DNA from: a virus
Taxonomy: Duplodnaviria; Heunggongvirae; Uroviricota; Caudoviricetes
Length of the DNA stretch: 6,371 nt
Reading direction: 5' to 3' (one strand)
Virus record (IMG/VR): IMGVR_UViG_2778261504_000024
Translations under genes and position numbers: made by a program
In this document: one piece after another, positions 424-2,288 of the stretch
Position numbering within the stretch: position 1 is the stretch's first letter
How the letters are laid out: every line of letters starts with the position of its first letter
The notes under the pieces: generated by a model
What the model saw: the letters and a program-made list of their open reading frames with translations, nothing else
Told to the model about the DNA's origin: nothing
The model's database searches: none

Positions 424-671
424 GTTGTCTGCTCTCCGGTTTTAACGTTGATGGTTGTCACCTGTTCCGCTTCGGCAATCTCCCGTTCTGTCAGCGTGGC
501 AAAGTTTGCCGCCGCCGTGGTCATGAATGCGCTTATCAGTTCGGGATGTGCTTTCGCGTATCCTTCTCCGGCGTGGCGGTCTATCGTTCTGATTGCCACC
601 TTTAAGGCGTGCTCTGTCATGTCTAATGCGCGATATTTTGGCGCTGTCTTATCTCTGGTTTTTCTGGTCAT
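420..671 (-). CDS. Hypothetical protein, 83 aa, translationally coupled to the ssb-like gene
   Basis: ATG at 671-669 preceded by GAGGA, though spacing is short. Stop TGA overlaps the SSB ATG (ATGA). No recognisable motif. Confidence 0.45.
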   Translation of the reverse strand: MTRKTRDKTAPKYRALDMTEHALKVAIRTIDRHAGEGYAKAHPELISAFMTTAAANFATLTEREIAEAEQVTTINVKTGEQTT

Positions 672-679
672 TCCTCACT

Positions 680-875
680 GCTCCCCACTTTTACTACCCA
701 CTTTTTGAAATTACCCAACGTCTCCCCACTTCTTTTTTTTGTGATTCTAACGTGATGTTTTTCAATGTATTTTTTATTCCCCACTTTTTGGGGTATATAC
801 AGGTGGGAAAGTGGGGAATCGCGTTTCAATTTTGTTAAATTCCCCATACTCCCCACTTTTACTACCCACTTTTTA
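680..875. repeat. Iteron array, putative origin of replication (ori) immediately downstream of the rep gene
   Basis: Core motif (C/A)CCCACTT at 683-690, 696-703, 724-731, 779-786, 851-858, 864-871 and in inverse orientation at about 811-817. A 26-bp exact direct repeat CTCCCCACTTTTACTACCCACTTTTT at 681-706 and 849-874. The copies flank an AT-rich tract (about 731-778). The array abuts the rep stop codon (873-875). Confidence 0.6.
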
Positions 876-2288
876 CAGTGGGCGCACGTCATCACCGTCA
901 ATAGCAATAACGCCATCACCTTCCAGCTTGTACAGCCAGCGCCGGAAGTGTTTCATCTCATACCCCAGCTTTTTCATATCATCGCGCAACAACGGAATTG
1001 TGCATTTATCGCCGCGCTGTGTGCGTGAACGGATACAGCCCCATAGCGCGGCATGATTCTCCGTCTTGTTCCCGGCTTCCTCGATGCGCTCCAGTTCAAC
1101 GGGTGGGCGCGGTTTATCCACAACCACCAGCGACGTGATTAACTCCTTGTCAGCGTCGGTAAAAAGCTCCACCACACGTAAATCGTATGCAGCCTCTTTC
1201 AGTTCCTCCGCGTCCTTCATTTTGGTGCAGGAGATAACCAGGGCTTCACTGTCTGCACCTTCACGGCGAATACGGTATTCAGCGTCCAGAGATGCACGAA
1301 ATGCACTGGAACCACGCGCCCCCTTTGTTTCATCCTTGCCGGAATGGTGAACCACCAGCACCGTGGCCCCTGTGCGTCGTTTCAGTTCGTCACATCCACG
1401 AATAAACGCCCCCATATCCCGCGCGTCATTTTCATCATTACCGCCAAAGCAACGCGCCAGCGTATCAAGAATAATCATGCGTACCGGTTTACCCGTTTCC
1501 CGTTCAACCTGGCGGGAAGCGATGACCATTTCATCGACATCAAGCGGGACCGCCGGAAAAATCGGGCGGTTTACCAGGTACAGATTTTCCACCCGTTCAT
1601 CATTAACGATTTCCCATGCTTTGATACGACGAGGGACACCAATGCCACCTTCACCGACGACATACATCACCGAACCATGCGCCACCCTGCGGCCTCCCCA
1701 GTGACGGCCAGTGGCAACATGACACGCCCAGGAACACGCGAGGAACGATTTATAGGAACCGCTCGCGCCGTATGTGCTGCACAATGAATTAGCCGGAATC
1801 ACGCCCTTAACGACATAATCAAGCTGTGTGTCGTACCCTGCAGATCCAATACTCATTGGTAGCGTGGTTTTTCGCTGGCTGTATTGCTCGTCAGTAAGTA
1901 TTTCCCCGCGCTCTGCCTGTTCGCGGATCCGTTGCAGGTAGTCGCGCCATTCCTCCCGCTTCTGGCTGTGCATTCCCTCGGGGTAATAACTCGCATCCCG
2001 TACACCTGCCGCCGCCAGTTTTTGCCCGATGGCATTAATATTTGATGGCTTGATGTGGCCTGCCTTGTACAGCCGGACACAATAGCGACCATCGTCGATA
2101 ATTTTCAGGTCTGCCAGTTCGTCAAGCTGGCTGTCTCCAAGCCATACAGGCGGAACATTGTCGCCGGCAAGTCGCCCGTCCTGCTCCTGCCATTGTTTCG
2201 CGTGCGCCCAGGCATCACTACCCGCAAAAATAATGACTTCGGTCATTTTGTCGTGTGGCTGTTTTTTTAAGTTCGGTGCCAGTTTCAT
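873..2288 (-). CDS. Replication protein: RecA-like P-loop ATPase of the RepA/AAA_25 type (putative primase-helicase/replicative helicase), 471 aa
   Basis: P-loop-like GASGSYKS, Walker B-like hydrophobic stretch ending in D (RMIILDTLARCF), and a VVHHSGKDETKGARGSSAF motif typical of RepA-like AAA_25 ATPases. N-terminal about 150 aa of unassigned fold. ATG at 2288-2286 with GGGG-rich RBS. ATGA overlap with upstream orf99. Iterons immediately downstream. Confidence 0.85.
   Translation of the reverse strand: MKLAPNLKKQPHDKMTEVIIFAGSDAWAHAKQWQEQDGRLAGDNVPPVWLGDSQLDELADLKIIDDGRYCVRLYKAGHIKPSNINAIGQKLAAAGVRDASYYPEGMHSQKREEWRDYLQRIREQAERGEILTDEQYSQRKTTLPMSIGSAGYDTQLDYVVKGVIPANSLCSTYGASGSYKSFLACSWACHVATGRHWGGRRVAHGSVMYVVGEGGIGVPRRIKAWEIVNDERVENLYLVNRPIFPAVPLDVDEMVIASRQVERETGKPVRMIILDTLARCFGGNDENDARDMGAFIRGCDELKRRTGATVLVVHHSGKDETKGARGSSAFRASLDAEYRIRREGADSEALVISCTKMKDAEELKEAAYDLRVVELFTDADKELITSLVVVDKPRPPVELERIEEAGNKTENHAALWGCIRSRTQRGDKCTIPLLRDDMKKLGYEMKHFRRWLYKLEGDGVIAIDGDDVRPL

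Follow-up and report, generated by a model that had tools for sequence, protein, structure and literature searches.

Does the dense array of short repeats that follows the rep gene of a satellite element mark the site where the element starts its replication and, if so, which protein reads the repeats? The question is raised by a 6,371-nucleotide stretch of Caudoviricetes DNA (IMG/VR record IMGVR_UViG_2778261504_000024, referred to here in its full length as the window), in which a sequence-only reading had placed an iteron-type origin bound by Rep, and from which it had deduced that the element replicates autonomously. Comparison with related islands argues, with a probability of about 85%, that positions 672-873 are the Rep-dependent vegetative replication origin of an Escherichia coli phage-inducible chromosomal island (PICI) of the EcCICFT073/EcCI042 type. 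As that reading had supposed, binding of Rep to the repeats is strongly supported, the evidence being the covariation of the repeats with a single winged-helix residue of the protein, and we infer that the element would be capable of autonomous replication. The origin is a further allele of an already published kind, so that its novelty is low; only the correspondence between residue 447 of Rep and one base of the iterons appears to be new, as no description of it was found in the searchable literature.

The nature of the host element is indicated by its genes. Along its - strand the window has, in succession, int, alpA, small open reading frames (ORFs), DUF4222, rep, a gap, ORF83 and ssb, which is the gene order of EcCICFT073 and EcCI042. 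The presence of int and alpA, the one-directional operon and the existence of a relative of about 10 kb with capsid and decoration genes identify the element as a PICI; this relative, a 94%-identical E. coli island located at tRNA-Pro, continues into the genes for the major capsid and head decoration proteins. The 231-bp origin region is present in 374 of 5426 complete E. coli genomes and, among the matches listed, a RepA-family helicase gene lies beside it in all cases. Searches of a GenBank phage collection with megablast gave no match to the window, and a plasmid collection gave two incidental matches only.

The repeat array beside rep

The exact motif CCCACTT occurs seven times in the window, six times on the + strand (684, 697, 725, 780, 852 and 865) and once on the - strand (809-815), and every copy falls within 684-871. 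The number expected by chance is 0.82, and seven or more copies were obtained in none of 200 shuffles. When one mismatch was allowed, nine of the 18 matches in the window lay within 684-882. A 26-bp repeat, CTCCCCACTTTTACTACCCACTTTTT, is present in two exact copies (681-706 and 849-874), and comparative alignment added four degenerate iterons (672-682, 710-721, 840-850 and, inverted, 799-810), bringing the total to 11 sites with a consensus of about 12 bp, AAAAGTGGGKAR on the rep-sense strand. Extending from 672 to 873, the array occupies the 201-bp gap between the rep stop codon (873-875), which the last copy of the 26-bp repeat overlaps by 2 nt, and the start of the 83-aa ORF83. Its sites form two blocks, five of them at 672-732 and six at 777-873, around a 44-bp core (733-776) whose GC content is 20%, against 51% in the window as a whole.

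The 26-bp exact repeat, the seven or more CCCACTT cores, the flanked AT-rich stretch and the contact with the rep stop codon had all been described in the sequence-only reading and are borne out. That reading had also reported motifs in both orientations; both do occur, but with a strong bias, nine sites being direct and two inverted. All five sites of the far-side block are direct, and the block on the rep side consists of three direct, two inverted (799-819) and one direct site. The array that had been outlined at 668-880 is real, with the correction that position 668 falls in the region of the ORF83 start codon; the look-alike motif at 876-882 is not counted as an iteron. A perfect 12-nt palindrome (arms 776-787 and 808-819) could fold single-stranded DNA into a hairpin (-10.4 kcal/mol, z about -4); since it exists because two iterons are opposed, no separate conclusion is drawn from it.

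This arrangement is the one seen in PICI replicons. In Gram-negative PICIs the origin is the region immediately 3′ of the initiator gene, and in those of E. coli it comprises two iteron sets around an AT-rich region (Fillol-Salom 2018, ISME J, Fig. 2a, PMC6092414). The initiator gene and ori of EcCICFT073 maintain a plasmid, which is lost when either of them is deleted, and the initiator of EcCI042 is listed as one of four allelic variants (PMC6092414). The array of the window likewise lies immediately 3′ of an initiator gene and has two iteron sets flanking an AT-rich region. A similar layout is found in the pathogenicity islands of Staphylococcus aureus (SaPIs), whose self-loading Rep helicase uses a C-terminal winged helix to read 6-12 iterons that lie right after rep around an AT-rich centre (PMC9371898). 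The proposal that the locus resembles satellite and PICI replicons is therefore supported by the work on both groups of islands, by the gene order of the window and by the 88% identity of its Rep to that of EcCI042. No second repeat cluster or AT-rich candidate origin was found in the window. DnaA boxes and IHF sites are lacking in 672-872 and occur at chance level window-wide, scans of 560-1000 for sigma-70 promoters and intrinsic terminators found no site, and Rfam gave no family match anywhere in the window.

Covariation of the iterons with one residue of Rep

Rep is a protein of 471 aa with a RepA-family AAA_25 ATPase domain (Pfam E=3e-44), which was the only Pfam family recognised in it, with no Rep_3-type initiator family. 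Its predicted structure combines a RecA fold with a single winged helix, the latter confidently predicted for residues 400-471, and residue 447 stands just before the recognition helix. The RSF1010 RepA helicase is its sole relative of solved structure by sequence.

The protein and the repeats were compared in about 170 relatives from E. coli, other Enterobacterales and IMG/VR, and 12 alleles from E. coli were aligned over the full gap. Across the relatives the sites hold to 11-12 constant positions. The aligned alleles retain the 11 positions while the spacers drift, the order on the rep-sense strand being the stop codon, R1-R3, I1-I2, a near-invariant spacer, C, the AT-rich core and L1-L5 (Table 1), and the core is AT-rich in every aligned allele despite its sequence variation. 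Within each locus all iterons of both orientations share one form, either GTGGG (G-type) or GTGAG (A-type). Such a concerted change of all sites is expected if a single protein reads them all.

The form of the iterons follows the residue at position 447 of Rep. In 13 E. coli loci, His447 is found with G (AAGTGG) and Asn447 with A (AAGTGA). At locus L010 the last 71 residues of Rep equal those of the window save for H447N, a single C-to-A change that turns CAC into AAC, and all the iterons are A-type. The rule also held for EcCI042, which was examined after it had been framed, and for an independent IMG/VR set of 59 distinct combinations of C-terminal domain and origin, where H loci were G-type in 32 of 32 cases and N loci A-type in 27 of 27. 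Taken by protein, 61 of 61 distinct Reps pair H447 with AAGTG-G or N447 (AAC) with AAGTG-A, and no column of the 471 other than residue 447 shows a perfect association (mutual information 0.998/0.998 bits, runner-up 0.31). Both iteron types were found on several otherwise near-identical C-terminal backgrounds, so the association is not explained by simple linkage. In other Enterobacterales, 80 loci carry AAGTG-N repeats in the 260 bp after rep, and the expected base was counted at 101/108 sites for H (G), 168/181 for N (A), 27/27 for S (C) and 136/165 for K (G). The covariation across these proteins and genera suggests that each array is specific for its cognate Rep, as would be expected of a PICI origin.

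Loci of other genera (L014-L093) include AAGTGCGGCA iterons with Ser at the H447 position (e.g. L047, L048 and L056) and AAGTGGGGGA iterons with Lys there (e.g. L067, L074 and L079), and the rule thus seems to extend beyond H and N. It appears somewhat probable, from these alignments, that a one-residue/one-base-pair code operates: in each iteron the base pair that follows AAGTG would be read directly by residue 447 (His/Lys-G, Asn-A, Ser-C), which would set the specificity of the origin throughout this widespread helicase-initiator family, and distinct groups of replicon specificity would have arisen several times through the C-to-A change in its codon combined with a concerted shift of about 11 iterons.

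Other candidate readers and sites were rejected. DUF4222 was discarded as the iteron reader because an identical protein adjoins both iteron types, and ORF83 because L007 and L010 have kept the array without it, which makes this protein probably unneeded for iteron recognition. The look-alike CCCACTG at 876-882 belongs to the coding sequence of rep; it remains GTGGG when the allele is A-type and, because it does not switch alongside the other sites, was left uncounted.

Some genomes carry more than one of these islands (L128/L132/L134, L158/L159/L170, L148/L157, L161/L163 and L152/L162). In four of these five genomes with several islands of this Rep family, all the co-resident copies have the same iteron type, so that one Rep could act on several origins. 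The idea that the H and N types diversified against cross-talk between co-resident islands is unsupported, given that four of the five multi-copy genomes are single-type.

Candidate mechanism, related replicons and alternative readings

The steps of replication can be proposed by analogy. A helper phage would induce the island, which would excise and produce Rep. The C-terminal winged helix of Rep would read the iterons, His447 at the start of the recognition helix contacting the G:C pair after AAGTG, and several Rep molecules would then assemble on both iteron blocks and melt the AT-rich core. The RecA-fold motor of the protein, similar to those of RSF1010 RepA and DnaB, would load itself as the replicative helicase in parallel with the SaPI Rep proteins. 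The single-stranded DNA-binding protein (SSB) of the island, which is encoded two genes downstream and probably plays an accessory part in replication, would cover the DNA once it is opened, and enzymes of the host or the helper would take over priming and synthesis. All of this, from binding to both blocks, core melting and helicase loading to the parts given to SSB and to the host or helper enzymes, is deduced from the SaPI and EcCICFT073 precedents. As the motor has a RecA fold and is not of the AAA+ class, its polarity and the strand on which it is loaded may differ from those of SaPI Rep; to judge from other members of the family, the polarity is probably 5′-3′, in which case Rep would load on the opposite strand.

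Among the known systems, EcCI042 resembles the window in its gap, which is likewise about 200 bp long and has an AT-rich core with iterons to either side, and in its gene content (int, alpA, ..., DUF4222, rep, gap, 83-aa ORF, ssb, ..., capsid, head decoration). It differs in being of the N447/CTCACTT type, whereas the window is of the H447/CCCACTT type, and both origins are predicted from sequence. EcCICFT073, the only Gram-negative PICI origin tested experimentally, shares with the window the island architecture, the location of the origin 3′ of the initiator gene and iterons of both orientations surrounding an AT-rich region. Its initiator, however, is a 584-aa P4-family primase (TIGR01613), as opposed to the AAA_25 RecA-fold helicase with a winged helix encoded in the window; the first 134 residues are 61% identical to those of the window Rep and the rest is unrelated. 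Its iterons (TGTCTACC/GGTAGA) are also unrelated and its gap measures 288 bp. The search that recognised TIGR01613 in the EcCICFT073 initiator gave no TIGR01613 or primase match in the window Rep. SaPIs, like the window, have a helicase as initiator, a C-terminal winged helix, short iterons downstream of rep and an AT-rich centre. Their motor is AAA+ (SF3/MCM-like) with 3′-5′ polarity, whereas that of the window Rep has a RecA fold like RSF1010 RepA, DnaB and T7 gp4, and their iterons are of 5-6 nt in opposed sets on each side (PMC9371898), whereas those of the window are of about 12 bp and mostly co-directional.

More distant replicons share single elements with the locus. The motor of the RSF1010 RepA helicase (1g8y) is homologous to that of the window Rep, which, unlike RSF1010, has the iteron reader fused to the helicase. 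The oriV of RSF1010 is DnaA-independent and has iterons beside an AT-rich region, as in the window, but its 20-bp iterons, of which there are three and a half, are read by RepC, a protein separate from the helicase, and the ssi hairpins are used by a primase that is separate as well. Unlike IncQ replicons, the window showed no RepC or RepB′ homologue among its proteins in Pfam and PHROG scans. The P4 alpha/ori-crr system is, like the window, a satellite replicon with initiator and helicase in one polypeptide and two separated repeat clusters, and the C-terminal winged helix of alpha binds an octamer repeat. P4 alpha nevertheless joins a primase to an SF3 helicase, a combination that the window Rep does not have, and ori and crr lie about 4.5 kb apart and do not flank a single AT-rich core beside the gene. 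Classical iteron plasmids (pPS10, F, RK2 and R6K) also have repeated sites by an AT-rich unwinding element and read them with winged helices, but their initiators are of the Rep_3/WH1-WH2 kind and they are copy-controlled, whereas the window element is an inducible satellite. The likeness to iteron plasmids that the sequence-only reading had drawn holds as an analogy only: no Rep_3-type initiator is present, the iterons are of about 12 bp and lack the length (17-22 bp) and phasing of plasmid iterons, and neither DnaA boxes nor IHF matches occur in 672-872.

Several observations weigh against interpreting the array as an origin. An intact array adjoins a rep pseudogene in at least one close relative: in ETEC1734 (L001 14873-16288) a 98%-identical rep carries an internal stop and is listed in the annotation as a pseudogene, and the array is one base from that of the window. 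Functional testing has been published for EcCICFT073, which differs in its iterons and, beyond the N-terminal 134 residues, in its initiator. Most sites point one way, unlike the opposed sets of SaPIs, and their start-to-start spacing is irregular (9-16 bp) and without helical phasing. No primase domain that could account for priming was recognised in Rep. Finally, covariation reflects the co-evolution of Rep and the repeats and by itself cannot separate an origin from a pure operator.

This last point bears on the first alternative, which is improbable: that the array is only an operator or roadblock through which Rep or another island protein controls read-through into, or translation of, the ORF83-ssb-capsid genes, with replication beginning elsewhere. 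The leftmost repeat overlaps the ORF83 Shine-Dalgarno sequence and adjoins the start codon, the island is transcribed one way with no terminator between rep and ORF83, and the covariation fits any function that involves Rep binding. Yet a core of 20% GC between repeat blocks 3′ of the initiator is the layout that is functional in SaPIs and EcCICFT073, no rival candidate for an origin was found in the window, and 11 sites over 200 bp exceed the needs of a translational operator. The operator and origin roles are compatible, and an operator alone is possible but less likely.

It is also very improbable that the array of the window is a decayed origin, a relic that no longer fires, as the 94%-identical ETEC1734 island, with its interrupted rep beside an almost identical array, might suggest. 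The sites at 710-721 and 840-850 are degenerate and that at 672-682 has a non-cognate A-type core, but these degenerate positions recur across many alleles and so look like a feature and not like decay. A dead relic is unlikely because the rep of the window is a full-length open frame whose H447 matches the G-type iterons, and several other genomes carry copies of the array with 98.7-99.6% identity to it. That the repeats serve packaging (pac/cos), partition or recombination and are recognised by some protein besides Rep can be practically dismissed. Partition sites and some pac sites do also contain short repeats of two orientations, but the motif follows one residue of Rep and nothing else in the protein, DUF4222 and ORF83 fail as readers as described above, in the different genera the array always remains next to the 3′ end of rep although the genes downstream vary, and EcCICFT073-type islands are packaged via a cos site (PMC6092414).

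Neighbouring features and biological meaning

The features of the putative Rep-dependent origin and of the genes that flank it are collected in Table 1.

Table 1. Components of the candidate origin and adjoining genes, listed from rep to ssb; iteron sequences are given on the strand shown.
Feature	Positions	Strand	Remarks
rep	873-2288	-	471-aa RepA-family (AAA_25, RecA-fold) helicase-initiator; stop 873-875
Rep C-terminal winged-helix domain	876-1091	-	Residues 400-471; proposed iteron reader
His447 codon	948-950	-	CAC; proposed specificity residue just before the recognition helix
Iteron R1	862-873	-	AAAAGTGGGTAG; abuts the rep stop
Iteron R2	849-860	-	AAAAGTGGGGAG
Degenerate iteron R3	840-850	-	AGTATGGGGAA; AGTGGGGAA or GGTGAGG in relatives; from allele alignment
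Inverted iteron I1	808-819	+	AAAGTGGGGAAT (+ strand reading); right arm of the palindrome
Inverted degenerate iteron I2	799-810	+	ACAGGTGGGAAA
Spacer	794-804		TATATACAGGT (ACCTGTATATA rep-sense); near-invariant in both iteron types (12 aligned E. coli alleles)
Iteron C	777-788	-	AAAAGTGGGGAA; left arm of the palindrome; borders the AT-rich core
AT-rich core	733-776		20% GC; proposed DNA unwinding element
Iteron L1	721-732	-	GAAGTGGGGAGA
Degenerate iteron L2	710-721	-	ACGTTGGGTAAT; GGTGGGTAA or AAGTGGGGAA in relatives
Iteron L3	694-705	-	AAAAGTGGGTAG
Iteron L4	681-692	-	AAAAGTGGGGAG
Degenerate iteron L5	672-682	-	AGCAGTGAGGAA; doubles as the ORF83 Shine-Dalgarno (GAGGA)
ORF83	420-671	-	phrog_1231; first gene past the origin; ATG 669-671
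ssb	1-423	-	Single-strand DNA-binding protein gene; Pfam SSB E=8e-17; phrog_44

Two elements of the array call for separate mention. The A-type core of the leftmost iteron (672-682), AGTGAGGA, coincides with the Shine-Dalgarno sequence of ORF83, and binding of Rep and translation of ORF83 could therefore interfere mutually. The spacer ACCTGTATAyA (794-804) is near-invariant in the 12 alleles of both types, though it is not an iteron, and it contains CTG. This trinucleotide is the one preferred by E. coli DnaG.

Further sites were noticed elsewhere in the window. A divergent control region (3539-3622) lies between the leftward operon and a rightward ylcI/ynfO-like gene (3641-3946); it has TGAAACACAC in three copies, one inverted (3542-3551) and two direct (3565-3574 and 3610-3619), among them a 13-nt perfect inverted repeat, and these resemble operators for a regulator of the island. 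At 3017-3026, ten consecutive C (G10 on the coding strand) fall inside a 157-aa ORF (2775-3248, phrog_2512); this tract could be prone to slippage or could give rise to sequencing errors. A 393-aa ORF on the - strand (3238-4419) runs antisense over the + strand genes at 3641-3946 and 3989-4177; it is probably spurious, and only its C-terminal part, from an ATG at 3444, corresponds to the Icd-like gene annotated in relatives.

If the array is the origin, it is the place where the satellite begins copying once the helper phage wakes it, which is a prerequisite for high-frequency transfer. In the initiator of this PICI a winged helix is joined to a RecA-fold motor of the DnaB/RepA-like kind, whereas the SaPI Reps studied structurally have AAA+ motors, and the mechanism of loading may differ as a consequence. 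The correspondence of H/N447 with the G/A of the iterons offers a simple, testable handle on Rep-origin specificity and, if the code proposed here is true, the specificity of PICI replicons would be predictable from sequence and could be reprogrammed by point mutation.

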